A DNA stretch of 64,000 bases from an uncultured Candidatus Saccharibacteria bacterium (GTDB lineage Bacteria > Patescibacteriota > Minisyncoccia > Phycocordibacterales > UBA9973), in NCBI GenBank assembly GCA_964484005.1, contig CAZADR010000001.1, positions 43,927-107,926 on the forward strand. Direction: 5' to 3'. Of this stretch, positions 14,901-39,866 are shown in pieces. Made by a program: the position numbers and the translations under genes. The notes beneath the pieces were generated by a model. It did not search any database, was not told the origin of the DNA, and was given only the letters and a program-made list of their open reading frames with translations. Every line of letters starts with the position of its first letter. The first letter of the stretch is position 1.

Positions 14901-15906
14901 CGCAATCACAGTAACTGACGCCTTCACTTTATATGTTCCCAAACCAATCGCTGGAACAAACACCACTATTACCAGAGCCAACTCTGCTTACTTTGAGGGG
15001 AATGTCGGGATTGGTCAAGTAGCACCAGCTTACGCCCTAGACGTCCTAGCCACCGGTACCGGAGTCATTGCTAGATTCAATAGTACCAATGCTACCGGTT
15101 GTACATTAGCTGATGGAGGAACCATCACCTGTACTTCAGATGTCAGAATGAAGAAAAACATAGAAGATATTACTTATGGTCTAGAAACCATCAAAGGTTT
15201 AAGACCCGTCTTATTCAATTGGAAATATGAAGATGATACTACTTCAAAAAACCTCGGTTTCATCGCTCAAGAAGTGGAAGCCCTAGTACCCAAACTCATC
15301 GCTACTGACGAAAACGGCATGAAGTCTTTAAATACCACCGCTATGATTCCTATTTTAACCAAAGCCATACAAGAAATGAATCTAAATCTTGAAGGAGTTG
15401 CAGGTACGATTACTCCGCTCGAAGCCTCTCCTAATGAATCTTTTGTCACTACTTTTTTTGATAATTTATTTAGCAAAGTTACCGTTTGGCTCGCTGATGC
15501 GGGGAATGGAATTGGTAAGATATTTACAACCGAAGTGGAAACCAAAAATCTCTGCGTCTCGGATGATAGCGGAGAAAAAACATGTATTACAAAATCACAG
15601 CTCGATGCCTTACTTTTAAATGCAACCGTCAGCCCTGCACCTGTGCCAGTACCCGAACCAATACCGGACCCTGTTCCAACTCCAACTCCAACTCCAACTC
15701 CTGATCCAACACCATTACCAGATCCTGTACCTGTAGTACCTCCGACATGTACTCTGCCTCAAGTCTTAGATACAACCACGAATACTTGCGTAGATCCCGC
15801 GCCAGTAATTCCGACTTGCACCCTGCCTCAAATTTTAGAAAATAATGTTTGTGTAGATCCTGTACCAACTCCACCTGCTGACACCACACCGCCAGTAACG
15901 CCATAA
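11905..15906 (+). CDS. Giant secreted tail-fibre-like surface protein with a collagen-like Gly-X-Y segment, repeated GNVGIGTT beta-structure units, a C-terminal peptidase_S74 intramolecular-chaperone autoprocessing domain, and a Pro/Thr-rich Cys-containing tail
   Basis: Signal peptide present. GLQGPQGIQGPMGPQGPTGERGSSGSDG is collagen-like. NVGIGTT(N/A/G)P recurs four times. SDVRMKKNIEDITYGLETIKGLRPVLFNW...GFIAQEVEALVP matches the endosialidase/tail-spike chaperone domain (S74). The C-terminus is PAPVPVPEPIPDPVPTPTPTPTPDP plus a TCTLPQ(V/I)L...C(V)DP motif twice. Confidence 0.85.
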   Translation: MLKKPFIKRLLFSSFFGLSFFFVFFFSAVNPVSAFDFNFDLNSTTIKASTLSANLSENAWDFYVVNVVEPTNNVLQEVINFFLDSNTYQVVLPETPLQTVTSFLNNTYNSYNNYILRPGVAAIEKSNVTFTKITDNITVPKISVPKVGMVANVSSIIDGVNNFSNTLFSLYDEYVIDPLAQLWGGIFFNISNNLNKVPPTSVVKIETPPAKTEIEPKPLSGSPIVYLNNNPSTNRGLQGPQGIQGPMGPQGPTGERGSSGSDGNTIDTSSFVSETDFDNQVNALLNSIENGLSGLSESISEEVNTDLLTVAGNATIGGDLMVNGQGIFTRVPTLAHAFAPSWPLGVSNVADATLYINPASSVASGNLIGAAINGTVKFIVDADGNVYANNMILNGSVTSGATTVSSLSVLDNTILGDAGVDTITVNGRINSDLTFTTDNTNDIGASGVNRARTGYFGTSIISPVVNATTGVQIAGAATTGTILRGNGTNYVPTTATFADTYTASNLLYSNGANTVAGLATANSGVLVTNSTGVPSILGSMTNGQLVVGSTGATPVLATITGTTDQIVVTNGAGTITLSIPQSINTTSTPQFARLGVGVAADATNILTATSASATDLSKTLNITHTGAITGTGYAGYFTKTGVSTTNVGLYATATGATNNYAAIFENGNVGIGTTNPGAKLSINTDYWNNAYFPAGTVIGAYLGAAYAGFFASGAGDTSRITLGNGGTGYQSYIENLAGGAGSLSIVNNNGPVLFSGTGNVGIGTTAPVQKLDMVVGAGDGTQNEAVGIRLRNTSVVGNTNTLQIGLNSTFNAGAAQPGYGYLQSVYWGGSVNALILNPQGGPVTVGTATDFNPGGFLVKGITLVSSPTRAGNTLMGGLGFTHGAGYTPISASIYGIYDKSVWSQGAGLVFNTVSGADISGSSGVERMRISSDGNVGIGTTGPGSHLQIDGNISAASWTTDGIAFDSNAATFTDTSTAGAGTVAVRTANSFGAPTFASTNAITVTDAFTLYVPKPIAGTNTTITRANSAYFEGNVGIGQVAPAYALDVLATGTGVIARFNSTNATGCTLADGGTITCTSDVRMKKNIEDITYGLETIKGLRPVLFNWKYEDDTTSKNLGFIAQEVEALVPKLIATDENGMKSLNTTAMIPILTKAIQEMNLNLEGVAGTITPLEASPNESFVTTFFDNLFSKVTVWLADAGNGIGKIFTTEVETKNLCVSDDSGEKTCITKSQLDALLLNATVSPAPVPVPEPIPDPVPTPTPTPTPDPTPLPDPVPVVPPTCTLPQVLDTTTNTCVDPAPVIPTCTLPQILENNVCVDPVPTPPADTTPPVTP

Positions 15907-23852: not shown

Positions 23853-23934
23853 TTAAGAACACAAAGATATTCTAACTTATTTTACCAATAATGCAAATCT
23901 TTTGGATATCTTTTTTATAGTGTACAATTGCGAA

Positions 23935-24969
23935 ATGCGTTATAAATTCTTTACTAATTCTGAAAAGGCCTGGCGAGCTATGTTTGATGTTATAAAAGAC
24001 GCAAAAAAGTCTGTCTATCTCGAGATGTATATTTTTGAAAATAACATGGTGCAATACGACTTTTTGATGTTATTAAAGAAAAAAGCTGAAAGTGGAACTC
24101 GGGTGAGGATAGTGTTAGATTCTTTTGGAAGTGCTGGATTAAATAAAATAGATATAGCTTCTTTGAAGGAAAGTGGTGCAGAGATTTTTTTCTTTAGTCA
24201 TTTTTTACACAGAATACACCGAAAGATTTTGGTGATTGATGAAAAGATTGCTTTTATAGGCGGAGTAAATTTTCACCAAATTTCTAGACGTTGGAATGAT
24301 TTGACGGTACAAGTAAAAGAGGGGAAACTCGTATTGTCTATTATTGGGTCTTTTGCGAAGGTGTACAGAGAGTGCGGAGGAAGGGATCCAATAATTCTTG
24401 CTCAAAACAAAAGTTTGGTTTTAGATAAGACACACACTTGGCTGATAGAACATTTTCCAATAAGAAACAAAGCAAGTTTGAAAAGGATTTATAAGAAAAA
24501 TATAAGAAAAGCGCAGATGAATATAATTTTAGCGACTCCTTATTTTATGCCTAGGCATTGGATGATAGCAGTTCTTCACCAAGCAGTCTTGCGAGGTGTA
24601 AGGGTGGAGGTTTTGGTACCCAGAATTACAAATCATTACTGGGTAAATCGTGTTAATTATTTTTTTATGTTTAAACTTTCGAAACTTGGAATTAATTTCT
24701 ATTTAGAACCAAAAATGAATCATGCCAAAGTTATGGTTGTTGATAATAAAGAAGGGATTATGGGTTCTCATAATTTAGATTTTCTTTCTTTTGAAATAAA
24801 CTCTGAAGTCGGGATATTTTTAAAAGATAAAGATGCAGTACAAAAGCTCGTGCAAATCATGACAGATTGGAAAAAAGATGCAGTTCTTTTTGATGCCCCA
24901 AATTATAAGCCTAAAATTATAGATTATATTTTGTCTCCAATAATTAGTCTTTTCTTGAAGATTTTCTAA
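23935..24969 (+). CDS. Phospholipase-D-family protein with two HKD motifs (cardiolipin-synthase / Nuc-like)
   Basis: HRKILVIDEKIAFIGGVNF and HAKVMVVDNKEGIMGSHNLD, i.e. two HxK(x)4D(x)6G motifs. Start moved to an internal Met. Confidence 0.75.
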   Translation: MRYKFFTNSEKAWRAMFDVIKDAKKSVYLEMYIFENNMVQYDFLMLLKKKAESGTRVRIVLDSFGSAGLNKIDIASLKESGAEIFFFSHFLHRIHRKILVIDEKIAFIGGVNFHQISRRWNDLTVQVKEGKLVLSIIGSFAKVYRECGGRDPIILAQNKSLVLDKTHTWLIEHFPIRNKASLKRIYKKNIRKAQMNIILATPYFMPRHWMIAVLHQAVLRGVRVEVLVPRITNHYWVNRVNYFFMFKLSKLGINFYLEPKMNHAKVMVVDNKEGIMGSHNLDFLSFEINSEVGIFLKDKDAVQKLVQIMTDWKKDAVLFDAPNYKPKIIDYILSPIISLFLKIF

Positions 24970-25022: not shown

Positions 25023-25096
25023 TCCGGGGTAGCTCAGCGGTAGAGCGGTCGCCTGTTAAGCGATTGGTCGTAGGTTCGATCCCTACCCCCGGAGCA
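25023..25096 (+). tRNA. tRNA-Asn (anticodon GUU); serves as an integration site
   Basis: TCCGGGGTAGCTCAGCGGTAGAGCGGTCGCCTGTTAAGCGAT...GTAGGTTCGATCCCTACCCCCGGAGCA. The last 14 nt overlap the 3' end of the serine recombinase ORF on the opposite strand. Confidence 0.9.
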
Positions 25097-26642
25097 ATGT
25101 TTTGTATTTAGTGCTATTTTCACTTTTTACCTTACTGGTATTAGGTTTTTTGAGTTCGAATTTATTTTGAGCGTCAATTCTCTCTTGAATCCTCTTTGAA
25201 ATCTTTTTTACTGAACTCTTTAAAACAGTATCAGCTTTCTTGTCTTTCAAGATTAGGTTCGCGAAAATGTGAGATAAGAGCAACCGGCGTTCTTCTGGGC
25301 TTCTCTTTTCGTATATTTCTCTGGCCCGGCGTGCGAGATCCAAGATGTTTATATACAACTCAAAATATTTTGTTTCCTCGTTCTTCAACTTGGTTATTTG
25401 ATTTTGGATTTCAGCTTGCTCGGTGTTTATCTCTTTCTGCTTCGCTTCCCACCTTTCTTGGGTTATTTTTTCGGACAATCTGTCATTGTAGAGTATATCC
25501 AGTTGCCTCTGTAAAGCGTTATAGCGAAGATCTAGGGCTTTAAGAGTATTTTCCTTGTATTCGGATTCTAGCTTATGATCTGCCTTAATTTTGTCCCTTA
25601 TGAGGTCTGCCTCTTTTTCAGTTATATTCTCAAAGAAACGGAATGCTCCTATCAAGGAAACATCCAGATCAGTTTCTTTAGTCATTCCTTTTTGGGAACA
25701 GGGCCGGTTGTGTTTGCAAGAATAATAAACAATTCCTTTTTGTATCTCACCACTTATTGAACCTCCACATTCTCCACACTCAATCATTTTACTGAACTGA
25801 AAGGTATGTCTTTTGTAATGCGGTGATTTACCTCGTGTAAGTGTAAATTGCACCTTATCAAAAAGCTCCTTCGATACCAACGGTTCGTGCTTTCCGTTAT
25901 GCACAAAATCGTTCCATCTTAATAATCCCATATAAAATGGGTCGCGTAGTATATCTTCCAATCTACTCTTTGAGAGCTTACTACCATTTCTAGTTCTTAA
26001 TCCATCCTCATATAATTTTTCCCGCAAACCAGTTAGAGAGTAATTTCTGGTTGCGTAATACTCAAATGCTTTCTTGATAAAGCGACTTTTATCTTCATCT
26101 ATGATATGAATTTTGTGTCCCTTTTCACCGATCGTTTTATATCCTATTGGAGGTTTTGCCGGTAGCCATCCCTGTGCAATTTTTTCTTTCTGACCCTTTT
26201 TAACTTCTTCCGAAAGATTAGAAATATACTTCTTCGCAAGGACTATTTCAATATCCCAACGAAACTTCTCGTCTGATTTGGCGTATCTGTGTATTACTAG
26301 ATTTTGTTTCACGAAATGTATCTGGTGTTTTTCGTCTGCCTCTATCCAATCATTCGCAGTTATTGCGTCCACAAAATTTCTTGTAAGACGATCCACCTTT
26401 TCACAAAGTAAAATAGGAACATCTTTCTTTTTTAGATATTCCATCATTTCCCCGAATATCTTTCTTTGCTTTGCGCCACTAGCAGATTCTGCCGGAGCGA
26501 ATGACCTAACTACCTCAAAACCTTTCCTGTTTGCATATTCTACAAGCAACTTCTCTTGGGAGGGCAAAGAATAACCAGTTTCTTCTTGTTCCTTTGAGGA
26601 TACTCTGCAATAAATTACGCATTTGATTCTAGTTAGATTCAT
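25083..26642 (-). CDS. Large serine recombinase (integrase), copy 1; C-terminus encoded within the tRNA-Asn 3' end
   Basis: VIYCRVSSKEQEETGYSLPSQ catalytic Ser region. DRLTRN. C-terminal zinc-ribbon and coiled-coil typical of large serine recombinases. The stop codon TAG lies at 25083-25085 inside the tRNA. Confidence 0.85.
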   Translation of the reverse strand: MNLTRIKCVIYCRVSSKEQEETGYSLPSQEKLLVEYANRKGFEVVRSFAPAESASGAKQRKIFGEMMEYLKKKDVPILLCEKVDRLTRNFVDAITANDWIEADEKHQIHFVKQNLVIHRYAKSDEKFRWDIEIVLAKKYISNLSEEVKKGQKEKIAQGWLPAKPPIGYKTIGEKGHKIHIIDEDKSRFIKKAFEYYATRNYSLTGLREKLYEDGLRTRNGSKLSKSRLEDILRDPFYMGLLRWNDFVHNGKHEPLVSKELFDKVQFTLTRGKSPHYKRHTFQFSKMIECGECGGSISGEIQKGIVYYSCKHNRPCSQKGMTKETDLDVSLIGAFRFFENITEKEADLIRDKIKADHKLESEYKENTLKALDLRYNALQRQLDILYNDRLSEKITQERWEAKQKEINTEQAEIQNQITKLKNEETKYFELYINILDLARRAREIYEKRSPEERRLLLSHIFANLILKDKKADTVLKSSVKKISKRIQERIDAQNKFELKKPNTSKVKSENSTKYKTLLRG

Positions 26643-26687
26643 ACATTTTTATTATACAATTAAAGTTGATAATCTCAAAAATAGTTT

Positions 26688-27245
26688 TTAACCACCAGCT
26701 AAAAATGTCATTTTATCTCTTATTTCTTTTTTTCTTTTATTTATCTCTTCTTGCTCTTCCAAATTGCTTCCAAAGCATATATCTCTGTTTGTTTTCTCTG
26801 GGGTATTCTCTGTATAGATAGTTTGCTTAAATTTACTAGCCAGTTTGCAGGATTCAGCAAACTGGTTTGCGGACACTGGCATATTTATAAAAGATTTTAG
26901 TATAGCGACAAGTTTATTTTTGTTTATGTGGAAGTACCTCTTTCTAGGAATACCACGAAGTTCTACTTCAAGCACATCGAGTTTCTTCCAAATTTTTATC
27001 GCCTTTTCTTGTTGGCTTCTAGTTAAACAGCTTTCTTGGTAAATTTCCCTTATTGTTTTATAAGTCCAATCTGGGTCTGAACCTTTGTTATCCCAATAGA
27101 GTAACTGTGATAGAAAAAGCCCAGCAGTTGCACTTTTAGCTAATCTGCCGAGTATTGGATTAAATGCGATAGGTTTTGCACCCAATATTTCAATAATAAG
27201 AGAGTTGTAGTTTGTATTAGCCCTGCCTTGATTTTTGTTTTTCAT
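26688..27245 (-). CDS. Winged-HTH protein resembling the replication-initiator RepA_N / DnaD-like N-terminal domain
   Basis: ATAGLFLSQLLYWDNKG...WTYKTIREIYQESCLTRSQQEKAIKIWKKLDVLEV resembles the RepA_N pattern. Low-confidence family call. Confidence 0.4.
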   Translation of the reverse strand: MKNKNQGRANTNYNSLIIEILGAKPIAFNPILGRLAKSATAGLFLSQLLYWDNKGSDPDWTYKTIREIYQESCLTRSQQEKAIKIWKKLDVLEVELRGIPRKRYFHINKNKLVAILKSFINMPVSANQFAESCKLASKFKQTIYTENTPEKTNRDICFGSNLEEQEEINKRKKEIRDKMTFLAGG

Positions 27246-27262
27246 ATCAGCTCTTTTATTTT

Positions 27263-27451
27263 TTAATGATCAGAACCTAAAACTGACCCACTAGGAGCTG
27301 ATACTAATGGGTCTGTTTTAAGCACCGATTTTTCTTTTTGTTTATCCTCGTAATCAAAACGTGCGAGCAAATCAAAAAAGGAAGACAGCTCGTCCAGCTC
27401 TTCTTTGTCTAAATGTTCTATTGAGGTGAGATTGTTATCTTCGCTATACAC
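27263..27451 (-). CDS. Small acidic hypothetical protein (62 aa)
   Basis: ORF only. Confidence 0.2.
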   Translation of the reverse strand: MYSEDNNLTSIEHLDKEELDELSSFFDLLARFDYEDKQKEKSVLKTDPLVSAPSGSVLGSDH

Positions 27452-27623
27452 TTGGGTCTTTTTTTGACCCCGTTTGTTTATTGCGACAAATAAAAAACGG
27501 ATTGTCCCGTAGCAGAATCCGTAGCAAGAGGTTTTGGATCTCTATCTCAAGAGATCGCCAATGTATTGAGTTACTCAGATTATAGCACTTCTTATAATAC
27601 CGGCAAATATGTTATCCACACTA

Positions 27624-30041
27624 TTATTTATCGTTATCTTTCTTCTTCTTTTCAGCTTTAGGTTTTTTAGATTTTTCGCGAGCTATTTTTTCTTCCATTT
27701 CCTTGCCAAATTTACTATCCACAATAAAAGAACCCCACACTTCAAAAATAAATTTATCTATATCATATTGTTCAACAACTTGATACATCATTGCTTCTGC
27801 ATCATCGCGGATGCTCAATGATCCGTTAATACTTTCTCTTTCGTAATCATCGCGCCACCTCCATAATTCTCGTTTTAATTGATCCTTATGAGGTAATCCC
27901 AAAACATTGTGGTCTTCAGGATCAACTCCGGCAGGCAAATTAGTAAGGTGTTTTGCAAAATACTTTGCTTCAAATTCTGTGATTTTTATTTTCAGATCAG
28001 CAAATATATCCATCCATCCCTTTTTTAGAGCAATAATGCCTAAATAACAGGCCTTTTCTAAAACTCTTGGTTCGTTGTATCCATATCCTCTTGTAGTTTT
28101 TTGCAAAGTATCTTTTGTTATTGAATAAAGACAATTTATACAATCTTGAACGAGCGCTTTGTCTTCCAATTTTTCTGCTACAATTATGCCTGTTTTTGCA
28201 ACACTATCTGTAAGGGTGTTGAAAGGATTTGAGCCACCATCAAACTTCTCGGCGTGGCTTACAAAAAAACTTGGCAGGTGGATGTTCCAAGCTAGACGGC
28301 TTTTTAATTCAGTCACATCTTTTTTAAAATCATCATCTTGTATTAGATCAACTATAAGATTATTTATATTGAACAGAAGACGACCTATACTATCAGTAAG
28401 AGTTGTGTCACAGCTTTTTACTGTTTCCGATAAAATCCGCAAACTCATATTTAATTCACGAAAGAACTCTATTAGATTTCTTTTATACCTATCCTTTTCT
28501 CTTGTATCTGTAATTTTAGAATAATGTTCCATTATTACCGCAAGGGTGGTGTAAAACTCATCATAACCCTTACTTAAACTGAAACGAGTTTGTATATCGT
28601 CAGGAAGCAAACCAGCTTTAATAAAATTATTGATGTGATTTGCGATGGTAGCAATGTTTTTTAAAGCGCCCTTGATATGTATCTGTCTATCAATATCAGG
28701 ACTAGTAAATACTGCGCTAATGATACGAAGAAATGTCGTGGAACAGAGATCCACAATAATGGTTTGTTTTTGAGATAGACCATAAATGGCTACACTCATT
28801 ATTTTATCTAGTAGTCCGTGAAGTGTTAAAGAAAGTCCTTTCTGTGAAGCTATAACTGCGATATCACGAAGCACTTGCAAACCTTTATAAACGACCTCTA
28901 TATTTTTTGCTCGTTGTCCGCTTTCAATGTAAAAGTTTAAATTTCCCAGTATTAGATCTAATATGGGGTTTTCGTTTCTCTGGCTTATGAAAGTGATTTC
29001 TTGTGCCTTGCCTGCCAATCCGCGATAAATATCAATTATATAGGTAGCAAGTTCGTCCTTGCCATCTTTGATAAACTTTTCTCCCGCCTTATTTAATCTT
29101 TCAAGATTTTTATTAACGAAAGTTTGGCTATCACTTTCTACTGCAAGAAATACTGTGCCAGATGGTAGTATGAGGGATGAGGTTTTTCGTGCTTCAAAAA
29201 ATCTAATCAGTATTCTATAAACTGCTGTGAACCCTCGCTTGGTAGTGCCTACCTCTTGCTTGTCGCTTAATTTTAATGAAATCTCTACAAGATTTTCTAT
29301 TTGCCTATCAAGGTTTATCATAAACGGCTGTAAAAATTGATTATATGCTTGGGCAAGTCCCATATCGTTAGTGATAGAGGGATTTCTGGTGTGAAGCAAA
29401 TCAGCTAACCGTTCTGCATCGGATTGCAATTTATTTAAAAATCTCACTCCCTCTTTTTCTAAAAAAGAAATTGCTTCTGACGGGTTTAGTTTTTGCCGGA
29501 CATTTTTATATTGCCAATCTATCAAAGCAAAAACGGCTCCAACTAATACAAGAGATAACAATACTATTCCCGAACTGATGTTATGTAAAATTGTTGTTAA
29601 ACTTCCAACATAAAGCCCACCGCCTAAAAATAAGAGTGTGATAATTATCACTACAAAATAAACAAACTTTTCTTTCCAGTCGTGTATAAAAACCTCAAAA
29701 TACTGGGATGAGTAAAGCTCTGCCGCACTCTGAATAAGGAAAATTGAAATAGTGAATACTATCGCAATAGTGCCTCCGGTCATTGCTCCGAGAGCGACTA
29801 GATAATTGCTTAAAATATCTTGCGTAAAGTTTAGTCCGCCAAAATAATTTACTATTAAGCCAATACCAAGACCGATTACTAAAAAAGATAGTCGTCTCAT
29901 CCAGCCAAAATGTTTTCCCAGAGATGATAAAAATCTTTTCCATCTTCCCAGATATAACCACATTGTCAGCTTGTAGCTATATTTTAGGTATTGAAGCCAT
30001 CCCTGTTTCCACTCTTTTATTTCTGCTAATAAAAGTTTCAT
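27624..30041 (-). CDS. 805-aa polytopic membrane protein of unknown function with a large helical cytoplasmic domain and a K-rich C-terminal tail (element cargo)
   Basis: About 5 N-terminal transmembrane helices, a long alpha-helical region and a KSKKPKAEKKKKDNDK tail. No recognised catalytic motif. Confidence 0.6.
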   Translation of the reverse strand: MKLLLAEIKEWKQGWLQYLKYSYKLTMWLYLGRWKRFLSSLGKHFGWMRRLSFLVIGLGIGLIVNYFGGLNFTQDILSNYLVALGAMTGGTIAIVFTISIFLIQSAAELYSSQYFEVFIHDWKEKFVYFVVIIITLLFLGGGLYVGSLTTILHNISSGIVLLSLVLVGAVFALIDWQYKNVRQKLNPSEAISFLEKEGVRFLNKLQSDAERLADLLHTRNPSITNDMGLAQAYNQFLQPFMINLDRQIENLVEISLKLSDKQEVGTTKRGFTAVYRILIRFFEARKTSSLILPSGTVFLAVESDSQTFVNKNLERLNKAGEKFIKDGKDELATYIIDIYRGLAGKAQEITFISQRNENPILDLILGNLNFYIESGQRAKNIEVVYKGLQVLRDIAVIASQKGLSLTLHGLLDKIMSVAIYGLSQKQTIIVDLCSTTFLRIISAVFTSPDIDRQIHIKGALKNIATIANHINNFIKAGLLPDDIQTRFSLSKGYDEFYTTLAVIMEHYSKITDTREKDRYKRNLIEFFRELNMSLRILSETVKSCDTTLTDSIGRLLFNINNLIVDLIQDDDFKKDVTELKSRLAWNIHLPSFFVSHAEKFDGGSNPFNTLTDSVAKTGIIVAEKLEDKALVQDCINCLYSITKDTLQKTTRGYGYNEPRVLEKACYLGIIALKKGWMDIFADLKIKITEFEAKYFAKHLTNLPAGVDPEDHNVLGLPHKDQLKRELWRWRDDYERESINGSLSIRDDAEAMMYQVVEQYDIDKFIFEVWGSFIVDSKFGKEMEEKIAREKSKKPKAEKKKKDNDK

Positions 30042-30201
30042 AATAAGCTGTATCTTAACATTTTGGGCTTAAAAAATATACTGAAATTGGGTTTCTGGCA
30101 AAATCTCAAAAAATTGCAATAAGACAAGAGTAATTATATAATTATTGGATAACTTAATAAGAAAGACCTAAACCCTGTGGATGGCCTTAAAACTATAGGA
30201 T

Positions 30202-30316
30202 ATGGTCGCAAAGTCGGATCACGCATAAAGAACCCATCGCAGGGTTGCGTGATCCGCCATATCGGGAAACCGGTATGAGAGGTTTCGGCCTCTACCTGTG
30301 GTGGGCTTTTTGTTTT
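30202..30316 (+). ncRNA. Candidate structured RNA element A (unknown family), ending in a U-tract 12 nt before the ATG at 30328
   Basis: Nested hairpins ggatcacgc/gcgtgatcc and aaccc/gggtt, a GAAA-tetraloop hairpin cgg-gaaa-ccg, and agagg/cctct, followed by gggctttttgtttt. It is homologous to element B at 37884-37999, with compensatory substitutions in each stem. Confidence 0.35.
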
Positions 30317-30327
30317 AGTAAAATTAT

Positions 30328-31344
30328 ATGAAAAAATTCTGGCAAATATCGAAAATAGCAATAGCAAGTATAGCAATATTTTCATTTCTCGTTCTTGTAT
30401 TTTTAGTTATTATTGTTTGGGATGATACTGACACAGAAACATCACAAAATGCGGATTTTTTAGCTAAACAACAAGAAGCACTTAATAAAGCAATAGATGA
30501 GATCGAAACAAAATCAAATCTAGAAACAGATGAATTAAAGAAAGAGATTGAAAATTTAAAAAGTAAAACCACCAAACAAACTCAAAACCAACAACAAGCT
30601 AATAATAACATTGCTGAATTAAAGAATGAGTTAAAATCCACTGATGCTTTAGTTAATGAAAATTATGACGAACAATCTGATGTTGTCTTAGATTCCATTG
30701 CTAAAGTTGCTTGTTTTTTAACTAAAAATAAGACCATTTTTGGTTCGGGTTCAGTATGGGGCGTAGGTGATGATTATTATTTAGTTACCAATAAACACGT
30801 TTTAGAAGAAGCAGATAGAGAAGATGAAAGTTGCGCTATATCGATTGCTAGAGATTGGAATGCAGTGGCTAATGATGTTGAAAAGGCCTATCAAGATGAT
30901 AACTTACTTATATATAGTTTAGACCTGAATTATACCTATTGGGAGATAGATGGGTTTGATTTTGCAATCACTAAAATAATTGAAGATAAGCAACCACTCT
31001 CTTTTCTCGATGATATTGCGATGGAAACAAATGAGACTGAGTGTAATGAGAATTTAGGGGTTGGAGAAAAAATAAAAATTATAGGATTTCCTTATACTAG
31101 TTCTGTTGCTCTACCCACTATTACAGAAGGAATTATTTCAAGTTTTGAGTATATTGGTGATAGTAGTTACTATATAACATCTGCAAAAATTGAACACGGA
31201 AATTCTGGCGGAATGGCGGTAACTAATAACTATCATTGTCTGATAGGTATACCCTCTGCTGTTGTTGTCGGTGATTCAGAGAGTTTAGGAAGGATTCTTG
31301 TTTTAACAGAGAAAGATTTAAAAACTCTTTTTGATCAGATTTAG
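30328..31344 (+). CDS. Membrane-anchored trypsin-like (S1 family) serine protease with an N-terminal transmembrane helix and coiled-coil
   Basis: LVTNKHV (His), a conserved Asp, and the GNSGG (HGNSGGMAV) Ser motif. Confidence 0.65.
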   Translation: MKKFWQISKIAIASIAIFSFLVLVFLVIIVWDDTDTETSQNADFLAKQQEALNKAIDEIETKSNLETDELKKEIENLKSKTTKQTQNQQQANNNIAELKNELKSTDALVNENYDEQSDVVLDSIAKVACFLTKNKTIFGSGSVWGVGDDYYLVTNKHVLEEADREDESCAISIARDWNAVANDVEKAYQDDNLLIYSLDLNYTYWEIDGFDFAITKIIEDKQPLSFLDDIAMETNETECNENLGVGEKIKIIGFPYTSSVALPTITEGIISSFEYIGDSSYYITSAKIEHGNSGGMAVTNNYHCLIGIPSAVVVGDSESLGRILVLTEKDLKTLFDQI

Positions 31345-31354
31345 TAGATAATTT

Positions 31355-31849
31355 ATGGAAAAAGAAAAACCTAGATCATTTAGATTAAGTCGAGAAACAA
31401 TGTTTGATAATACCATTTATGGAGATATGTCTAAAAAAGATTGGTGGAAGTTTAAAAAGGTAAGTTACAAAGTAAATTATAGAAATCTTGCTTTATTATT
31501 TATCTTTTTCTTATTTCTAATACCAACGTTATTCCCTGTTGGTAGCATTGCTCTCATTATTTGGATTATTTTATGGATAAAACATAAACTATCTCAACCA
31601 AGAGAGGTTGTTATTGCTTCAAAAACGCTTACTCCGGAAGATATTAAAAAATTTCTTGGAAATGGAGCAGATAACCTAACCAACGAAGAAGCCCAAAAAC
31701 TTTTTATGGAATTACCTGTAGAAAAACAAATGGAAGCTGTTTTTAGCAATTCTCCAAAGGAGTTAAAAAGAGAAAGAAACGTAAAAATAATTGTGAGCAT
31801 TATTGTTCTAGTTGGCCTAGCGGTATTGCCTTTTTTATTACTAAATTAA
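31355..31849 (+). CDS. Hypothetical membrane protein
   Basis: ORF with transmembrane helices. Confidence 0.4.
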   Translation: MEKEKPRSFRLSRETMFDNTIYGDMSKKDWWKFKKVSYKVNYRNLALLFIFFLFLIPTLFPVGSIALIIWIILWIKHKLSQPREVVIASKTLTPEDIKKFLGNGADNLTNEEAQKLFMELPVEKQMEAVFSNSPKELKRERNVKIIVSIIVLVGLAVLPFLLLN

Positions 31850-31894
31850 GCAGATAATAATTTATGAAAAAATTAAAAGTTAATAAAAAACAAA

Positions 31895-32188
31895 ATGAAT
31901 AATAGCTGGGGTGTTGGACTTCTGATTGGTGGAATTATTGGAATATCTATAGGCGCAACTTTTGGGCCTTCTAAAAAAGACTATGAACGAGCAAAAGGGC
32001 AATGTTATATCGTCCGAGATGATTATAGTTCTGCTCTTGAAGATGCCACTTCAAGTATTGAGGAAGCAAATAGCCAAATAGCTGATGGGCAAGGTTATGC
32101 TTGGTCTTCTTATAATGAAATGGGAGAGGCTTTAGAGAATTTATACGAAGTTGATGATGCTGACAATCCCGGAACTACTTGTTATTAG
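31895..32188 (+). CDS. Hypothetical small protein with an N-terminal transmembrane helix
   Basis: ORF only. Confidence 0.35.
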   Translation: MNNSWGVGLLIGGIIGISIGATFGPSKKDYERAKGQCYIVRDDYSSALEDATSSIEEANSQIADGQGYAWSSYNEMGEALENLYEVDDADNPGTTCY

Positions 32189-32357
32189 AAATTAGCTAAT
32201 GCAATGAAATACTACTTTAAAAAATTTCTATACTTTACCATAATGATCGCATTTTTCTATATGACTTTTTATATTCTCGGTGGATGGGCGTTATTTTTTT
32301 GGGTGCCTTTTATATTTTATCAATTAGAGTAATTAAGTATCTAGTTCTAAAAATTAT

Positions 32358-32711
32358 ATGGAAAACAATGATAAAAAAATGTGGGGTCTTGAATCAGATA
32401 CATATGATAAATTGGCAAGTAGTCATTCTAGGGCAAATATATTTTTATGGATTGTTGGGGGCTTAATATACAATTTTTTTAATGGCGATTTAATAAGTTT
32501 GTCATCTGTCTTAGTTGTTTTCCCCGGCATATTTATTGCTTCTTTTGCTTCAATTCCAACCTTCTGGGTTAATGTTAAAAAAATGCAGATACTCCAAAAA
32601 ACAAATAATATACTAGTGCTAATAGGATTCACTATTTGGTATGCGGTTGATCTTATTTTTCCAATTCTAATGAGTATTCTATTTATCAAGTTTATTAGTT
32701 TGTTTAATTAA
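32358..32711 (+). CDS. Hypothetical membrane protein
   Basis: ORF with multiple transmembrane segments. Confidence 0.35.
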   Translation: MENNDKKMWGLESDTYDKLASSHSRANIFLWIVGGLIYNFFNGDLISLSSVLVVFPGIFIASFASIPTFWVNVKKMQILQKTNNILVLIGFTIWYAVDLIFPILMSILFIKFISLFN

Positions 32712-33101
32712 ATTTTATAGAAGATTATATGGAAAAATTAAAACAATACAAATATATAATTTTAATAGTATTGCTAACTTTTGGGTTTGTTTTTTATTGG
32801 TATGAATGGAGACCACACGGAATATAACAAATCACGCAAGAAGAAGTAATTATTATTTAATGTTATAATATAACTATGAAAAACAAAACCCCAACAACAC
32901 GAGAATTAGTAGATAATACATATATTGATTCTGCGTTGCGTGGACTTAAACGTCTTTTAGATGACGACTTTAGGGATGGTAAAATTAGTGAAACTGAATA
33001 TAAAAAACGATCAGATAAATTTACAGAAGCTATAAACGCCCCAGAATAACCCTAGAAATAGGTTTTTTTGATGGGCTAGAATCTGTTGGAATTAAATATA
33101 A

Positions 33102-33653
33102 TTACTTCACCCATTTCTTCCCAGTTAATTTTTCCAGAAGCATCTCTCTCAACTGTTGATCAGAATATCCAGCAAACTTATTAATATGATGTTTGTCCGG
33201 AGAGTATAGACCCTTTAACTTATAAGCCATATCTAGTCCATCTATTATCGCCCTATTATTATCGACAGAATAGAAAGCTATTTTACCTTTTGCTGATTCT
33301 TGTATTACAACGACTTTTAATCTAGCATCCTCTAAACATTCTTTTATTTCTTTGTCTTTCATTTTTTTAGGAAAGCTAAAGTGTTTTATTTCTTTTGCTT
33401 CTAAAAGTTCTAAATGTTTATTCACTAAAAACTCATCATCTATAAAAGATTTCATTAAAACATCCCAGCTTTTAGTTTGTCTTAACTGTTGAGGATTGTC
33501 TGCATAGTTTTGAGAATATCCGGCTTCTTTAATTGAAGCTCCCAATGTCTTACCTTTTCCAAGATTTTCCAAGATTTTTCTATGTCGCTCTAATGGCTTT
33601 TTTTCTCTATTTACTTTTTTATTCATCACTTCTTTATTAAAATTACTTACCAA
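33102..33653 (-). CDS. HTH protein resembling a phage terminase small subunit (Terminase_2-like)
   Basis: ILENLGKGKTLGASIKEAGYSQNYADNPQQL resembles the ...AGYS...A... HTH of small terminase subunits. It sits immediately downstream of recombinase 2. Confidence 0.4.
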   Translation of the reverse strand: MVSNFNKEVMNKKVNREKKPLERHRKILENLGKGKTLGASIKEAGYSQNYADNPQQLRQTKSWDVLMKSFIDDEFLVNKHLELLEAKEIKHFSFPKKMKDKEIKECLEDARLKVVVIQESAKGKIAFYSVDNNRAIIDGLDMAYKLKGLYSPDKHHINKFAGYSDQQLREMLLEKLTGKKWVK

Positions 33654-33680
33654 ACTTTATTAAAATGATTCTCTGATAGT

Positions 33681-35345
33681 TTAATACGCTAAAAGTGACT
33701 TTATTTCAGCCAATGCTATACTAGGAAAAGGATATTCTTCGAGCCAATTTATAGTTCGAAAGTCGTCCACAATACCGAGCAATGTTTTGTATTTATAGTC
33801 AAAATCAGACTTTTGTATTGGAGATACAAGGCTTTTTTGTAGTTCGTAGACTTCATTTAGCTTAGGAATCCATTCAAGCAGATATTTGCATGCTAAATTG
33901 TAATTTGGCTTTATTTCATTTACGTTTTGTGCGAAGTTCGTAAATAATTGAGCAAACAATAACCTCTTTTCATCTGTAAGTGCTTGCTCGTAAATTTCTT
34001 TAGCCTTGAAAGCTAATTCGTGGATTATTAAACGCAACTCTTGGTAATCATCGCTTTGGCTAACAACTTTTTCAAGCGTAGATTCAAGGGCATCTTCTTC
34101 AGTTTTACATTCAGCAATCTTTCTTTCGCAATATTCAAGTGGTACTTCTTTGTTTATTGTTGCCTCAAAATATTTATCTTTCTGTTTTCTTATGCTTGTG
34201 AGTAGCCCATTCAGTCTTTGAATTTCAGTTTCCCTTAACTTCACATTCTCAGCATTTTCTTCCAAGATAATTCCTTCAATCCATTTTAGTACCGCTTCAT
34301 TCTTAGGGGCTATTTTAAAGAATACGGGGTCTACCTGCTTTTCTACTTCTTCCTCCTTGATATAGGTCTTTTTGGTGCAATGACGAGATTTTAAGTGGTT
34401 ATTACAATGTCCATAAAGAATACCTTTTTGTGTTTCCCAGCTCAATACTCCGCCACAACCATCACAAAAGATTTTTCCTTGAAATAAATAATTGTGCTTG
34501 GTGGTAATAACATTTTTACCTCTTCTTTTAAGAACACTTTGTGCTTTCTCAAATAAGTCTTTGGTAATTAAAGGCTTGTGTTTTGCTGGGTATATTTCAC
34601 CTTTCCATTTCATTTTGCCATAGTAGAATGGGTCTTGAAGTAATTCATAGATTCTACTTTGTAAAACTTTATTTCCATTTGTTGAACGAAGCCCCGTTTT
34701 ATACATTTCATCCTCAAGACTTTGTATAGAATAGTTTCCCGTAGCATATAGCTCAAACATTTTTCTAATATGCGGAGCAACCCCATCATCAATCACATGT
34801 ATTTTGTGTCCTTTGTCCCCAATAGTTTTATATCCAGTTGGTGGTTTGGTTGGCAACCATCCTTGTGCTATTTTTTCTTTCTGCCCCTTTTTCACTTCTT
34901 CGGAAAGGTTAGCTATATATTTCTTTGCAAGAACAATCTCAATATCCCAACGAAATTTTTCGTCCGATTTGGCATACTTGTGTATTACAAGGTTCTGCTT
35001 AACAAAGTGAAGCTGTCTTTCTTCATTAGCCTCAATCCAATCATTTGCTACGACTGCTTCCTTGAGGTTTCTGGTGAGTCGGTCAACTTTTTCACACAAA
35101 AGAATTTGAATATTATTTTTTCCCATATAGCCCATCATTTCAGCAAAGATTTTTCTTTGTTTTGTTCCACTTGCAGATTCTGCAACAGAAAAAGGTTTTG
35201 CCACTTCAAAACCTTTTCTATTTGCATATTCAATTAGTAATTTTTCTTGCGAGGGAAGCGAGTACCCCGTATCCTCTTGTTCTTTTGATGATACACGGCA
35301 ATAAATAACGGCTTTATTCTTTGTGTTTTTTATTTGAGTTTTCAT
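33681..35345 (-). CDS. Large serine recombinase (integrase), copy 2, full length
   Basis: VIYCRVSSKEQEDTGYSLPSQ...DRLTRN, roughly 60-70% identical to copy 1 over the catalytic domain. An internal site at 33777-33795 repeats the copy-1/tRNA junction sequence. Confidence 0.85.
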   Translation of the reverse strand: MKTQIKNTKNKAVIYCRVSSKEQEDTGYSLPSQEKLLIEYANRKGFEVAKPFSVAESASGTKQRKIFAEMMGYMGKNNIQILLCEKVDRLTRNLKEAVVANDWIEANEERQLHFVKQNLVIHKYAKSDEKFRWDIEIVLAKKYIANLSEEVKKGQKEKIAQGWLPTKPPTGYKTIGDKGHKIHVIDDGVAPHIRKMFELYATGNYSIQSLEDEMYKTGLRSTNGNKVLQSRIYELLQDPFYYGKMKWKGEIYPAKHKPLITKDLFEKAQSVLKRRGKNVITTKHNYLFQGKIFCDGCGGVLSWETQKGILYGHCNNHLKSRHCTKKTYIKEEEVEKQVDPVFFKIAPKNEAVLKWIEGIILEENAENVKLRETEIQRLNGLLTSIRKQKDKYFEATINKEVPLEYCERKIAECKTEEDALESTLEKVVSQSDDYQELRLIIHELAFKAKEIYEQALTDEKRLLFAQLFTNFAQNVNEIKPNYNLACKYLLEWIPKLNEVYELQKSLVSPIQKSDFDYKYKTLLGIVDDFRTINWLEEYPFPSIALAEIKSLLAY

Positions 35346-35521
35346 TTAGTTAGATTCTTGCCTACAAAGTTTTTAAAGGTTTTCTTGTCTATTCTGTATT
35401 CCTTGCCAAATTTATATGCTTTAAGTTTCCTTGCCCTTATATATCGGTAAATAGTTATTATATTTAGCTTCAGTATTTCCGCTAATTCTTCGGCTGTATA
35501 GAATTGCTCTTTTTTTCTCAT
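35342..35521 (-). CDS. Excisionase-family HTH protein (59 aa) overlapping the start of recombinase 2 by 4 nt (ATGA); not in the supplied ORF track
   Basis: Minus-strand translation MRKKEQFYTAEELAEILKLNIITIYRYIRARKLKAYKFGKEYRIDKKTFKNFVGKNLTK shows the Xis/MerR-like HTH_17 pattern (TxxEAAExLGVSxxTIYRxIxxGKLPAxRxGRxxRI). Confidence 0.5.
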   Translation of the reverse strand: MRKKEQFYTAEELAEILKLNIITIYRYIRARKLKAYKFGKEYRIDKKTFKNFVGKNLTK

Positions 35522-35580
35522 GTTCCAATTTTATCATACTGGACTTTTCTATACAACCAAAGTTATCCACATTTACCTTA

Positions 35581-35763
35581 TCACGCAGGCAAAGTATTTT
35601 TCTCCTCCTTCTTAAGGCGTTGATAGATACCAAACAGAGTTAAATAATAATTAGCCACTCCATTGGCAATTTCAGCCACTTCCTGTTCAGAATAATTCTC
35701 AAAATCAACATGGTCTTTGTGAATCTCCTTGAATTTATTTATTTGTTCCTGTCGCAGTTCCAT
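35581..35763 (-). CDS. Small hypothetical protein (60 aa)
   Basis: ORF only. Confidence 0.25.
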   Translation of the reverse strand: MELRQEQINKFKEIHKDHVDFENYSEQEVAEIANGVANYYLTLFGIYQRLKKEEKNTLPA

Positions 35764-35961
35764 GTTTAGTTTCTAATTTACTTTTGACGCCCCATTGGGG
35801 GAAACTGACCAGATAGTTTTATCTTTACATCACCACATAATATTATTTGGCTGAACAAGGGGATATATTCTCTGTCCAGAATATAAAATCTTTACAGGTT
35901 CATCTGTCCGAAGGATAGATGAATAATATCAATTATTATATGTGTATATTATTTGTGTATA

Positions 35962-36207
35962 CTATCTGGTATTGGTTGGCTGTTCTTCACTTAACGAGTT
36001 AATGGTTTCAACAAAGTCTTTGTCATTCTCTACAACGCTGAAAGCTTTTTCAGTAACGGTGTACCATTTTGTTTTGTCATATCCGTGTTTATTGAACCTT
36101 CCAGTGTCTATGTATGATTTCTTTTTGAGATTGTCTAAAATTCGTCTAATTGTTGCTATTGTCCAAAAAGAATATTGCTCTTTAAACTTAAGTACAGAAT
36201 TAAACAT
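35962..36207 (-). CDS. Small winged-HTH-like hypothetical protein (possibly RepA_N/DnaD-like)
   Basis: SFWTIATIRRILDNLKKKSYIDTGRFNKHGYDKTKWYTV. Weak resemblance only. Confidence 0.3.
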   Translation of the reverse strand: MFNSVLKFKEQYSFWTIATIRRILDNLKKKSYIDTGRFNKHGYDKTKWYTVTEKAFSVVENDKDFVETINSLSEEQPTNTR

Positions 36208-36478
36208 CCAATATTTACCTTGATAATAGTGATATTCACTCTTTTTTCTTTTGTTGAGATTAACCTAAAAATATATGTTGCTGAACATAATGGCTTCCTC
36301 AACGCCAACATCTTTTGCCACACTTTCACTAAAATAATATTTTTTTATATCATTGTTTTCCATATGTAATTAATGCTTTATGATGTAAACTATGCTTTTC
36401 TTTTTTCGTTTCTACATACACATCATTTAAGCTCATTTTTATTGCTTATAATAAAGAGGAGCTTCAAAAACAGGTACG

Positions 36479-36694
36479 CTACAACATGTCTTTTGTTAGG
36501 TCGTACAAATATTTTAATATTTGCCCCTTTTCGTCTTTTGCATACTCTTCCTTATCAACTAATTTGTTAAAATATCTTCTAATTCTATCTCTACTGAACT
36601 TTTTTCCACGTACTGTGTTGGCAAAACAAGTAAATGACGACCAGAAAGGGTTTTTCCTCTGAATATATTCAAATCTTCTTTTTATACTTCTCAT
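36479..36694 (-). CDS. Small basic hypothetical protein
   Basis: ORF only. Confidence 0.25.
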   Translation of the reverse strand: MRSIKRRFEYIQRKNPFWSSFTCFANTVRGKKFSRDRIRRYFNKLVDKEEYAKDEKGQILKYLYDLTKDML

Positions 36695-36843
36695 TATTTT
36701 ATTAGTTATTAATATTTCTCTTAACTAGACTGGGAAATCAGTCCAAGCAGTAGTTTTTGTTACGACATAATAAAATCACCACTTCTATGATTATAGAAAG
36801 TGGTATATATACAATTTACAATATTGTAAAAATAGGATGTGGA

Positions 36844-37578
36844 TTAATGCACATTAAACCTCCAACTTGAGCTTTTATAACTTCCATCAAGTTCTTCTCT
36901 CATAAAAACTTTATCAGAGTAAAGAGGCTTTTTTAGTTCTTTGTTTAAATCGGATATATATTGACGAAGCGTTTTCTCTCTTTGCTTTGATTGCATTCCT
37001 AATATATCGTAAATCTCTTCCTCTCCCACTGTTTCGTATTCTGCTTCAATGAAAATTTTACATAATTTCTTTAATCTTTTTGGTAAGGTAATGATTTCAT
37101 CATGAATTCTTATCGTATCATCATTATAAAGCTCCAAATCCCCAACACTTTTTTCCCTCATAGGTATTCGTAAAGATAAATCAATGCCACTCTTATATAA
37201 GATTTCATCTGTCTGTTTTAATGTTAAAACACTTTTAAAAGACTGTTTGTATTTTCTTAATTTCTTTAAATTTACATTTATATAGGTAATAACAAAATCA
37301 TCAGTTTCAATACGGCTTCCGTCTTCATTATATATTGACCCCTTAGAATAATCGGACATGGCTGGAATAGGTGTTCTTGAAGTCATTTTTAAGATTTTTT
37401 GTTCTTCTAAATTCAATAAAAATGAAATGCATTCTGAACTCGGTAATTTGAATTCCCAAGTCATTAATTCATAGCCCCCTCTAGGATTATTTTTTCTACT
37501 TTCTTTTGGATAAAGAAGAACTTGCTCCTCAATAAAAGATAAAATTCTTAAACACTCTACGAATTTCTTCTGCTCCAT
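36844..37578 (-). CDS. Hypothetical protein (244 aa), element cargo
   Basis: ORF only. No motif recognised. Confidence 0.4.
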   Translation of the reverse strand: MEQKKFVECLRILSFIEEQVLLYPKESRKNNPRGGYELMTWEFKLPSSECISFLLNLEEQKILKMTSRTPIPAMSDYSKGSIYNEDGSRIETDDFVITYINVNLKKLRKYKQSFKSVLTLKQTDEILYKSGIDLSLRIPMREKSVGDLELYNDDTIRIHDEIITLPKRLKKLCKIFIEAEYETVGEEEIYDILGMQSKQREKTLRQYISDLNKELKKPLYSDKVFMREELDGSYKSSSWRFNVH

Positions 37579-37883
37579 TTCTAGATTGTATTACAAAAAG
37601 TTCTAAAATCCCACCATTTTTCAGATGAGTATATTCGGTGTATCCTCTTTCATTTGGGTGTCCTCCCCCCGTACCCCTTATCAAATAAGAATATTACTAA
37701 TAGTAAATATTAAAATATAGATGTCGTAATGTAAGCTGTATTTGCTTATAGAAAGGCTATAACAACCTCTTTAATGGTCTATAAACACGCTATAAACCCT
37801 TATTGATGGTAAATTTATAGAAAGGTGCTATTATTGTTTTATAACTTAATATAAGAGTAGCCTAAACTTTTGTAGACAAAAGC

Positions 37884-37999
37884 ATGGTGAACGAAGTCAG
37901 GTAATGCATAAAAAACCCTTCATGGGGTCGCATTACCTGCCGTACAGGGAAACTTGTATGAGAGACTTAGGTCTCTACCCGTGAGGGGCTTTTTGTTTG
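37884..37999 (+). ncRNA. Candidate structured RNA element B, homolog of element A
   Basis: Same architecture as A with covarying stems: aggtaatgc/gcattacct, cagg-gaaa-cttg, agagac/gtctct, then gggctttttgtttg. Confidence 0.35.
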
Positions 38000-38040
38000 C
38001 CAATTACGGAAATTATTAATGATAAACAAAATACAAATAT

Positions 38041-38232: not shown

Positions 38233-38237
38233 TAATT

Positions 38238-38666: not shown

Positions 38667-38706
38667 GAAACTTATTAGATTTATATTATTAGTTAAAAAA
38701 ATAATT

Positions 38707-39066: not shown

Positions 39067-39131
39067 ATAAAGATTGATTTTCCTAGTAAAAGTTGTAATA
39101 TCAAAATATTAGTAATAATCTCTAATATTAC

Positions 39132-39626: not shown

Positions 39627-39627
39627 T

Positions 39628-39858: not shown

Positions 39859-39866
39859 TAAAATAT

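Follow-up and report, generated by a model that had tools for sequence, protein, structure and literature searches.

A tandem pair of integrative elements at a tRNA-Asn gene points to large serine recombinases that carry the attachment site inside their own gene

Why does a recombinase gene stop inside a tRNA gene, and why does the sequence at this boundary recur inside a second recombinase gene on the same DNA? The question was raised by a 64,000-nucleotide stretch of contig CAZADR010000001.1 (assembly GCA_964484005.1) from an uncultured Candidatus Saccharibacteria bacterium, the whole of which is called the window here. In the window, a serine recombinase gene (recombinase 1) runs into the 3' end of tRNA-Asn, and a paralog (recombinase 2) lies further along on the same strand. 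Sequence comparison makes it very probable that two related integrative elements, e1 and e2, sit in tandem at the 3' end of tRNA-Asn, that the attachment site of each element (attP, with arms P and P') lies inside its own large serine recombinase (LSR) gene, and that integration splits this gene. The host site is called attB (arms B and B') and the two ends of an integrated element attL and attR; "body" is used for the recombinase up to the split and "tail" for the C-terminal residues beyond it.

The open reading frame (ORF) of recombinase 1 ends ...KYKTLLRG*, and its last two codons and stop codon (25083-25085) lie within the 3' end of tRNA-Asn, a position on which ARAGORN and the ORF coordinates agree. 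An earlier reading of the window, the initial annotation, had noticed this overlap; its statement that the final codons (KYKTLLRG*) are tRNA-encoded holds for the Arg-Gly pair and the stop. The exact recombinase 1 protein (P0121) is present on 8 contigs. The ORF of recombinase 2 passes the same KYKTLL and then continues for 31 further codons (GIVDDFRTINWLEEYPFPSIALAEIKSLLAY*), close to the 30 or so given in the initial annotation, which had also reported correctly that a 19-mer at the boundary, GAGCAATGTTTTGTATTTA, recurs inside recombinase 2. Its two exact copies are found at 25092-25110 and 33777-33795. This repeat could be due to chance or to ordinary conservation, unrelated to recombination, since the two genes are paralogs with 49% amino-acid identity. 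However, 0.02 matches were expected by chance, and two copies were found in 0 of 100 shuffles. The nucleotide alignment of the two genes, a check proposed in the initial annotation, showed no continuous conservation around the 19-mer. With the C-terminal third only about 35-55% identical, the 19-mer stands out as an isolated match, and continuous conservation between the paralogs was rejected on this basis. One copy also abuts the tRNA exactly at the shared segment, which holds a core found throughout the family. The chance that coincidence or paralogy explains the repeat is, in our judgement, negligible.

A third junction was found by a tblastn search with the 31-residue tail at the end of the recombinase 2 ORF. 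The search revealed a paralogous tail on the minus strand at 43494-43396 (SLLAWKYSLRTIKWEEVFPFPSVSLQQIHKLLS, E 3.6e-6), in a frame that contains no Met in the window. The plus-strand sequence around this junction is atcGTTCGtaagctatacttccaagcGAGCAgagagaaaatatc, and the VIT1-family host gene follows. The initial annotation had predicted a second junction consisting of tail-coding sequence, core and former tRNA-downstream DNA, and this is what was found here (J3 in Table 1). GAGC(A) is common to all three junctions, with tRNA, core and recombinase 1 body at J1, tail, core and recombinase 2 body at J2, and tail, core and host DNA at J3. The 19-bp identity consists of this core of 4-5 bp and the P' arm common to both elements. 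The segments between the junctions, e1 and e2, are collinear: each has a recombinase, a 105-bp stretch at 75% identity (30211-30315 and 37894-37998), a second short match and a tail, in that order.

Table 1. Features of the tRNA-Asn locus, in positions of the window
Feature	Coordinates	Strand	Evidence or remark
PLD-like / cardiolipin-synthase family host gene, upstream of target	23902-24969	+	Pfam PLDc_2 2.8e-41
tRNA-Asn(GTT), integration target, B arm of attB	25023-25095	+	ARAGORN
J1, attL of e1: B arm, GAGC core 25092-25095, P'1 arm	25073-25120		fits consensus of 43 attL sites
e1, 8,685 bp, J1 centre to J2 centre	25095-33779		
Recombinase 1, integrated form, 519 aa: body 1 (517 aa) plus Arg-Gly-stop from tRNA antisense	25083-26642	-	
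e1 replication-initiator-like gene, 185 aa	26688-27245	-	PHROG 9773 "replication initiation O-like" 1.7e-22; DnaD-like helicase loader 9.5e-10
e1 ORF, 805 aa	27624-30041	-	no Pfam or PHROG match
e1 trypsin-like peptidase, 338 aa	30328-31344	+	Pfam Trypsin_2 1e-11
J2, hybrid junction: P1 arm, GAGC core 33777-33780, P'2 arm; attR of e1 fused to attL of e2	33754-33805		
Displaced native tail of recombinase 1 (GIVDDFRTINWLEEYPFPSIALAEIKSLLAY*), read as C-terminus of recombinase 2 ORF	33681-33776	-	tail HMM E 4.6e-16
Recombinase 2 ORF as found, 554 aa: body 2 (33777-35345) plus tail of e1	33681-35345	-	
e2, 9,709 bp, J2 centre to J3 centre	33780-43488		
e2 helix-turn-helix (excisionase-like) gene, 59 aa, overlapping recombinase 2 start	35342-35521	-	PHROG excisionase and DNA-binding matches 1e-7 to 7e-4
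e2 519-aa gene	40943-42502	+	DUF8370/DUF8371; phrog_30194
Displaced native tail of recombinase 2 (AWKYSLRTIKWEEVFPFPSVSLQQIHKLLSIVK*), orphan without body	43384-43485	-	tail HMM E 6.5e-20
J3, attR of e2: P2 arm, GAGC core 43486-43489, B' arm (original tRNA-downstream DNA)	43463-43510		
VIT1-family transporter, host gene downstream of island	43545-44045	+	Pfam VIT1 8.2e-31

The same physical order of parts can be read in another way. The island could be one composite element of 18.4 kb with its ends at J1 and J3, integrated through the attP of recombinase 1. Recombinase 2 would then keep its native tail and an unrecombined attP, the latter as the initial annotation had suggested, and the tail at 43.4 kb would be that of recombinase 1. 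The intact, in-frame ORF of recombinase 2 is compatible with this arrangement, which also does not need a reaction of attP with attL or attR. The two readings differ in which tail belongs to which body, and relatives provide this information. A scan for the recombinase family with one genome per species gave 79 loci (L008-L086), and a profile hidden Markov model (HMM) made from 27 tails was run on all six frames of these loci. All 11 loci of the recombinase 1 clade (11/11) have the tail type DDFRTIDW..EYPFPSIAL..IKSLL, to which the 33.7-kb tail of the window also belongs. Their bodies include those of L039, L032, L045 and L060, which are 90%, 87%, 78% and 77% identical to recombinase 1, and their orphan tails match the 33.7-kb tail. 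In L039 the orphan tail, LLGIVDDFRTIDWVREYPFPSIALAEIKSLLAY, differs from the 33.7-kb tail by only 3 residues, and the P arm of its attR is identical to the P1 arm of J2 from GTTCG to the core (GTTCGAAAGTCGTCCACAATACCGAGCA). The six loci of the recombinase 2 clade (L008, L010, L011, L016, L019 and L020) all have the tail type LLAW..LRTIKWEE.FP.PSVSLQQI, as at 43.4 kb. The 43.4-kb tail type is borne both by the L008 body (81% identical to recombinase 2) and by the full-length protein P0002 (80% identical). Two near-identical recombinase 2 bodies, P0001 and P0242, bear yet another tail.

Body and tail type are, therefore, concordant in 17 of 17 informative loci, and they co-vary in the direction opposite to that required by a composite element. 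Since tail type follows body clade in the relatives, the tail at 33.7 kb belongs to recombinase 1 and the tail at 43.4 kb to recombinase 2. In addition, e2-like elements occur singly at tRNA-Asn elsewhere (L089 and L095). We consider such a composite, or nested, element highly improbable and reject it on the co-variation of body and tail. With the tails assigned in this way, the island is best read as a tandem array. The segment at 33777-33795 is a hybrid junction between two tandem elements and not the unrecombined site that the initial annotation had seen there, and the 554-aa "recombinase 2" is a chimera of body 2 and tail 1. This chimeric protein (P0241) is present in exact form on four contigs.

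One of the relatives has a more complex end. In L032, three attR-like orphan tails are arranged in series within 1.7 kb (722-820, 1412-1519 and 2312-2401), each followed by a GAGC core. The innermost tail alone matches the resident body of the recombinase 1 clade, and the outer two are of another type (LEWRDAFRTFDW...). The outer tails appear to be remnants of elements that occupied this tRNA site earlier.

The split is seen across the family. Searches with each recombinase retrieved 242 proteins, and the source names given for them are mostly Patescibacteria/candidate phyla radiation (CPR) (Nomurabacteria, Paceibacterota, Yanofskybacteria and Wildermuthbacteria). In this set, 137 proteins stop 1-2 residues past Leu-Leu (mostly ..LLRG; also LLGR, LLPR and LLRR) and 47 run on through the antisense tRNA (..DSNLRP.., ..GIEPTT..). 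About three quarters of the relatives (184/242) end in tRNA-encoded residues, and about 45 bear tails (38 classified as tails, plus several from the class "other"). ARAGORN found a tRNA overlapping the recombinase stop or at most 150 bp from it in 33 loci. This was tRNA-Asn in 23 of them and tRNA-Gln, Tyr, Arg, Leu, Val, Asp or Glu in the rest. Several more target tRNA-Asn genes were missed by ARAGORN owing to an intron. The intron in tRNA-Asn(GTT) of L032 (11585-11894, minus strand) belongs to group I (RF00028, 85.9 bits, E 2.5e-22) and interrupts the anticodon loop. Sequence similar to it occurs in L009, L016, L039, L089 and L095; the tRNA-Asn of the window is intron-free.

The tail HMM found 38 orphan tails in 33 loci, and all 38 lie on the recombinase strand. 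Apart from one in L011, which comes directly after the stop at a tandem-type junction, they lie at the element's opposite end, 5.4-10.8 kb upstream of the recombinase stop. Element lengths range from 5.4 to 10.7 kb with a median of 8.1 kb (n=16), and the length of e1 falls within this range. Five further loci (L010, L044, L067, L081 and L086) also have tandem arrays, with two recombinase copies on one strand at a distance of 5-9 kb.

The anatomy of the attachment sites was examined by aligning 43 attL and 25 attR sites on the core and reading the half-sites outward from the centre. The B arm has the consensus CTCCgcgGGtAGGa.TCGAAC..., in which the T-loop motif of the tRNA occupies positions 16-21 (43 sites). 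The P arm has the consensus CTCGCttgGa.gGAcga.TTtCGAAC..., with TCGAAC at positions 21-26 (25 sites), and the P' arm shows a weaker c.aAAg at positions 21-26. The minimal core in every attL/attR pair is GAGC on the tRNA-sense strand, which corresponds to G71-A72-G73-C74 of the tRNA. Crossover is, therefore, placed at the extreme 3' end of the tRNA, which is left intact. In L059, where the target is tRNA-Asp, attL and attR have TCGCCCGCGCA (11 bp) in common and a stretch of the acceptor stem is repeated in the P arm; the core can be longer where the target is another tRNA.

The distal GTTCG motif lies 5 bp further out in the P arm than in the B arm, and this matches the shift between attP and attB in LSR systems. 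For the Listeria integrase, and by proposal for other serine integrases, the motif for the zinc-ribbon domain is at positions 16-24 in attP and 11-19 in attB (PMC3783163). The initial annotation had pointed to gttcga upstream of both copies of the 19-mer. The motif is real, but its spacing differs: the distance to GAGC is 18 nt in the tRNA (25074 to 25092; T-loop GTTCG at 25074-25078 in J1) and 23 nt in the second copy (33754 to 33777; GTTCG at 33754-33758 in J2). The 5-bp shift between attP and attB motifs explains this difference. The spacing is also 23 nt at J3 (GTTCG at 43463-43467). Even in the most divergent tails, no feature is better conserved than the Arg-Thr codons (CGA AC.), which always follow Leu-Leu by six codons, because they coincide with the shifted TCGAAC motif.

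Both enzymes contain Resolvase, Recombinase and Zn_ribbon_recom domains (Pfam). The resolvase catalytic domain (PF00239) was found at 8.1e-20 in recombinase 1 and 2.2e-19 in recombinase 2, and the Recombinase domain (PF07508) at 1.7e-17 and 7e-15 in the two proteins. The zinc ribbon (PF13408) scored 36.5 bits in recombinase 2, above the cut-off, and 23.0 bits in recombinase 1, below the cut-off of 25.3. In alignments of 30 and 76 sequences, S19 of the RVSS motif and C294, C297, C314 and C323 of the zinc ribbon are invariant. An AlphaFold2 model of the full-length relative P0002 has a mean predicted local distance difference test score (pLDDT) of 86 and places coiled-coil helices (350-397 and 403-429) as an insertion in the zinc-ribbon domain. 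Foldseek with this model gave full-length matches to the SPbeta integrase (9dxd, E 8e-19), phiC31, Bxb1 and LI (4kis). Every sequence and fold feature that could be tested was found, and both enzymes belong to the LSR family.

Is the tail a genuine part of this protein? It might instead be a separate, conserved small coding or binding feature at the element end, so that full-length ORFs would be read-through accidents confined to tandem junctions. Several full-length examples are demonstrably in tandem arrays and no excised form has been observed, both of which fit such a view. Several lines of evidence argue that the tail is part of the enzyme. In 45 of 48 attL sites the recombinase frame reads the core's CTC as a codon, and the tail frame does so in all attR sites (24/24). 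Due to this continuity, rejoining the left half of attR with the right half of attL always gives an in-frame gene, and, by the geometry of recombination, tail and body are inevitably fused. The stop-to-stop frames that contain the orphan tails are short (30-165 codons), the J3 frame lacks a Met as noted above, and the tail type co-varies with the body clade. Selection on the tails also acts at the protein level. Beyond the half-site of about 26 bp, the ratio of nonsynonymous to synonymous differences (pN/pS) is 0.40 for the recombinase 1 type and 0.21 for the recombinase 2 type, with synonymous sites near saturation (pS 0.78-0.85). These values indicate that the tail amino-acid sequence is under purifying selection, though most sampled copies are orphans. 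In the P0002 model, a low-confidence linker (501-520, pLDDT 58-64), which covers most of the P' arm coding sequence, is followed by a confident helix-turn-helix tail with helices at 517-531 and 541-552 (pLDDT 88-94), a helical unit of the full-length protein. The view of the tail as a separate feature is, thus, quite unlikely.

These data suggest that, once joined to the body, the tail is translated and has a function, and the elements would, therefore, pass through an excised state over evolutionary time. The displaced part comprises 31-33 C-terminal residues, and the integrated ORF retains all Pfam domains. The tails end ...SLLAY and ...KLLSIVK, with no ssrA-like LAA ending.

Two proposals of the initial annotation were borne out by J3 and by dozens of related loci: in this element family the attP core is situated in the 3' coding region of the LSR gene that the element carries, and integration into tRNA-Asn swaps the C-terminus of the recombinase for tRNA-encoded residues. 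We propose the following mechanism, for which the position of attP was reconstructed from the junctions and not from a free element. The attP would be centred on the Leu-Leu codon pair, some 32 codons short of the stop in the element's own recombinase gene, and the gene order in the free element would be body, P' arm, core, P arm and tail. Recombination of attP with attB would leave the tRNA intact and the body abutting it, with the ORF ending in Arg-Gly and a stop in the T-stem. The last 32 or so residues would be exchanged for two tRNA-encoded ones, and the tail would end up at the element's other end. Where two elements stand in tandem, the tail of the one next to the tRNA would land in frame behind the body of the distal element; "recombinase 2" looks full-length because the e1 tail sits in frame behind body 2. 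An excised circle with body and tail joined would be a stage of the element cycle. The predicted junctions are ...GTCCACAATACCGAGCAATGTTTTGTATTTAGTGC... for attP1, ...CTTCCAAGCGAGCAATGTTTTGTATTTATAGTC... for attP2 and ...CCCTACCCCCGGAGCAGAGAGAAAATATC... for the empty attB.

Loss or exchange of the tail would be expected to alter the enzyme in activity, directionality or stability, and could provide a built-in sensor of the integrated state. More tentatively, and with considerable doubt on our part, the tail may be a functional module that reports this state. The full-length form would integrate, and the tRNA-terminated form would be altered in directionality, activity or stability, for example by being excision-competent or locked. 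If so, control of directionality would be encoded in the position of the attachment site, besides or instead of in a separate directionality factor. The tail of a neighbour would also re-complete the distal enzyme in tandem arrays and, thereby, couple stacked elements.

Several observations weigh against tandem integration by gene splitting. No excised circular form was found. The joined proteins body 1 plus tail 1 and body 2 plus tail 2 were absent from a collection of 15 billion proteins in an exact look-up, as were body 1 plus tail 2 and body 2 plus Arg-Gly. A scan of metagenome contigs with the 19-mer gave 13 loci, and only L089 and L095 were relevant; both are of the attL type, and no circular junction was seen. 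The same scan of viral contigs gave one irrelevant locus. Five element-sized contigs with full-length genes (L001 and L102-L105) have no terminal overlap, and L102 and L104 clearly continue into non-element genes. The B' arm has no conserved motif in the aligned sites. The formation of tandem arrays is also left unexplained, because attP with attL, or attP with attR, is not a substrate pair for canonical serine integrases, according to one report (PMC3783163); such arrays occur regardless, with six examples counting the window. Finally, full-length, tail-bearing relatives are present on contigs labelled Bacteroidota (L012, L014, L017 and L064) with no tRNA or second copy within 10 kb. Their surroundings resemble those of integrative and conjugative elements. 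L014, which is the same as L101, is a 449-kb contig labelled Chitinophagaceae, and the neighbours of the recombinase gene there are IS66 transposase genes, a TrwB-like coupling protein and UmuC/UmuD-like genes. The split may not be valid for every branch of the family.

The target and its flanks were also compared with an unoccupied site. The tRNA-Asn in the window is undamaged through the discriminator G73 (25094) and is the same as the unoccupied tRNA-Asn of L106 through GGAGC. At the unoccupied site (L106:7075-7149 and L107:4716-4790), the order tRNA-Ala (minus strand), PLD gene and tRNA-Asn (plus strand) is conserved, and there is no element downstream. This empty site was located through the PLD gene and in a more distant relative only, whose PLD protein is 67% identical to that of the window and whose tRNA-Asn is identical; it reads GGAGC followed by CAAAGTTTTAGC. 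An empty site in the same strain was sought through the VIT1 neighbour, and e2 was present on all four contigs (4/4). L002, a 161-kb contig, stops about 300 bp beyond the recombinase 1 stop, just past J1, and many of the PLD homologues (P0244-P0252 and others) lie on contigs of 1.1-1.6 kb, so assemblies tend to break at this locus. Such breaks at a tRNA-Asn hot spot fit population heterogeneity or repeats. Elsewhere in the window, a 1333-aa ORF (11905-15906) has a GC content of 0.44-0.47 and a 2-kb stretch (45000-47000) one of 0.42-0.49, compared to a background of about 0.33. These regions may hold foreign or compositionally unusual genes.

Apart from the recombinases, e1 and e2 resemble small integrative replicons more than they do complete tailed prophages. 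In relatives, the counterpart of the 805-aa gene of e1 is a Toprim (L001) or Prim-Pol (L103) protein. The small gene overlapping the start of recombinase 2 is matched by Pfam HTH_17 in L002/L007, and its product is a candidate directionality factor or regulator. The second short match between e1 and e2 lies at 32734-32815 and 39654-39732; the shared stretches outside the recombinases have 72-75% nucleotide identity and keep their order. The first of them sits upstream of divergently oriented genes, and it may be a common regulatory or origin region.

How does this arrangement compare to known systems? Like the large serine integrases of Listeria A118/LI, SPbeta (SprA), phiC31 and Bxb1, these enzymes have a resolvase catalytic domain, a recombinase domain and a zinc ribbon with an inserted coiled coil. 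Their attachment sites are likewise short and of limited identity, with a distal motif 5 bp further out in attP than in attB. To our knowledge, the characterised large serine integrases have attP outside the integrase ORF and mostly integrate into a protein-coding gene or at an intergenic position. In contrast, the present family has attP in the last 10% or so of the integrase ORF, uses the 3' end of a tRNA gene as target and changes its C-terminus on integration. It also differs in that only one arm of attB, the tRNA, is conserved. SCC elements of staphylococci form tandem or composite arrays built by Ccr serine recombinases at orfX. The similarity lies in serine-recombinase elements stacked head-to-tail at one chromosomal site, which implies the use of hybrid junctions as targets. 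The Ccr attachment sites, however, are outside the ccr genes, and a chimeric recombinase is not known to form where two such elements meet.

The closest layout is that of the "suicidal" tyrosine integrases of the SSV1 type, known from archaeal viruses and plasmids (SSV1, pTN3 and pT26-2), which have the attachment site in the integrase ORF, target a tRNA gene and partition the integrase gene (PMC8371274, PMC7253208). These integrases are exclusive to archaea according to a 2021 review (PMC8371274). The window and 33 other loci share with them the attachment site inside the integrase ORF and the partition of the gene by integration. Unlike the SSV1-type enzymes, the present ones are serine recombinases without the tyrosine recombinase fold (Phage_integr_3), and their hosts are bacteria (Patescibacteria/CPR). 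The SSV1-type split separates the N-terminal from the catalytic part and gives two inactive pseudogenes, whereas only about 32 C-terminal residues are displaced here and the catalytic and DNA-binding domains remain in one intact ORF. The initial annotation had called the locus SSV1-like and self-splitting. This is appropriate for the layout, with an attachment site in the element's own gene and a tRNA target, but not for membership, given a bacterial serine enzyme that loses only those residues. Another parallel is the integration-dependent immunity of mycobacteriophage BPs and its relatives, described in two reports as an attP in the 3' end of the repressor gene that yields a C-terminally altered protein with changed properties (PMC4557955, PMC3694055). 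In both cases attP is inside the 3' end of an element gene and integration alters the C-terminus of its product. The gene that is cut here is the integrase itself and not a repressor, and the BPs integrase is a tyrosine recombinase.

Our literature search, which was incomplete and had most subscription-journal papers outside its scope, found no report of a serine integrase whose attP lies within its own ORF, nor of such a system in Patescibacteria. A large computational survey of LSR attachment sites makes no mention of tRNA targets and filtered for sites within 500 nt of the gene (PMC10083194). The self-splitting layout had earlier been described only for archaeal tyrosine integrases. The logic of self-splitting is now seen in a widespread family of bacterial LSRs in Patescibacteria/CPR, with a milder outcome: a C-terminal swap instead of the destruction of the gene. 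Since 184 of the 242 relatives are tRNA-ended fusion products and some of the apparently full-length ones are two-element chimeras, the finding bears on annotation, on phylogeny and on the mining of such enzymes for genome-engineering tools. For predicting attachment sites in uncultivated lineages, it is handy that in this family the gene's own 3' end gives attP directly and that attB is formed by the 3' end of a tRNA that is highly conserved. It also becomes testable whether an integrase senses its own integration state through its C-terminus.

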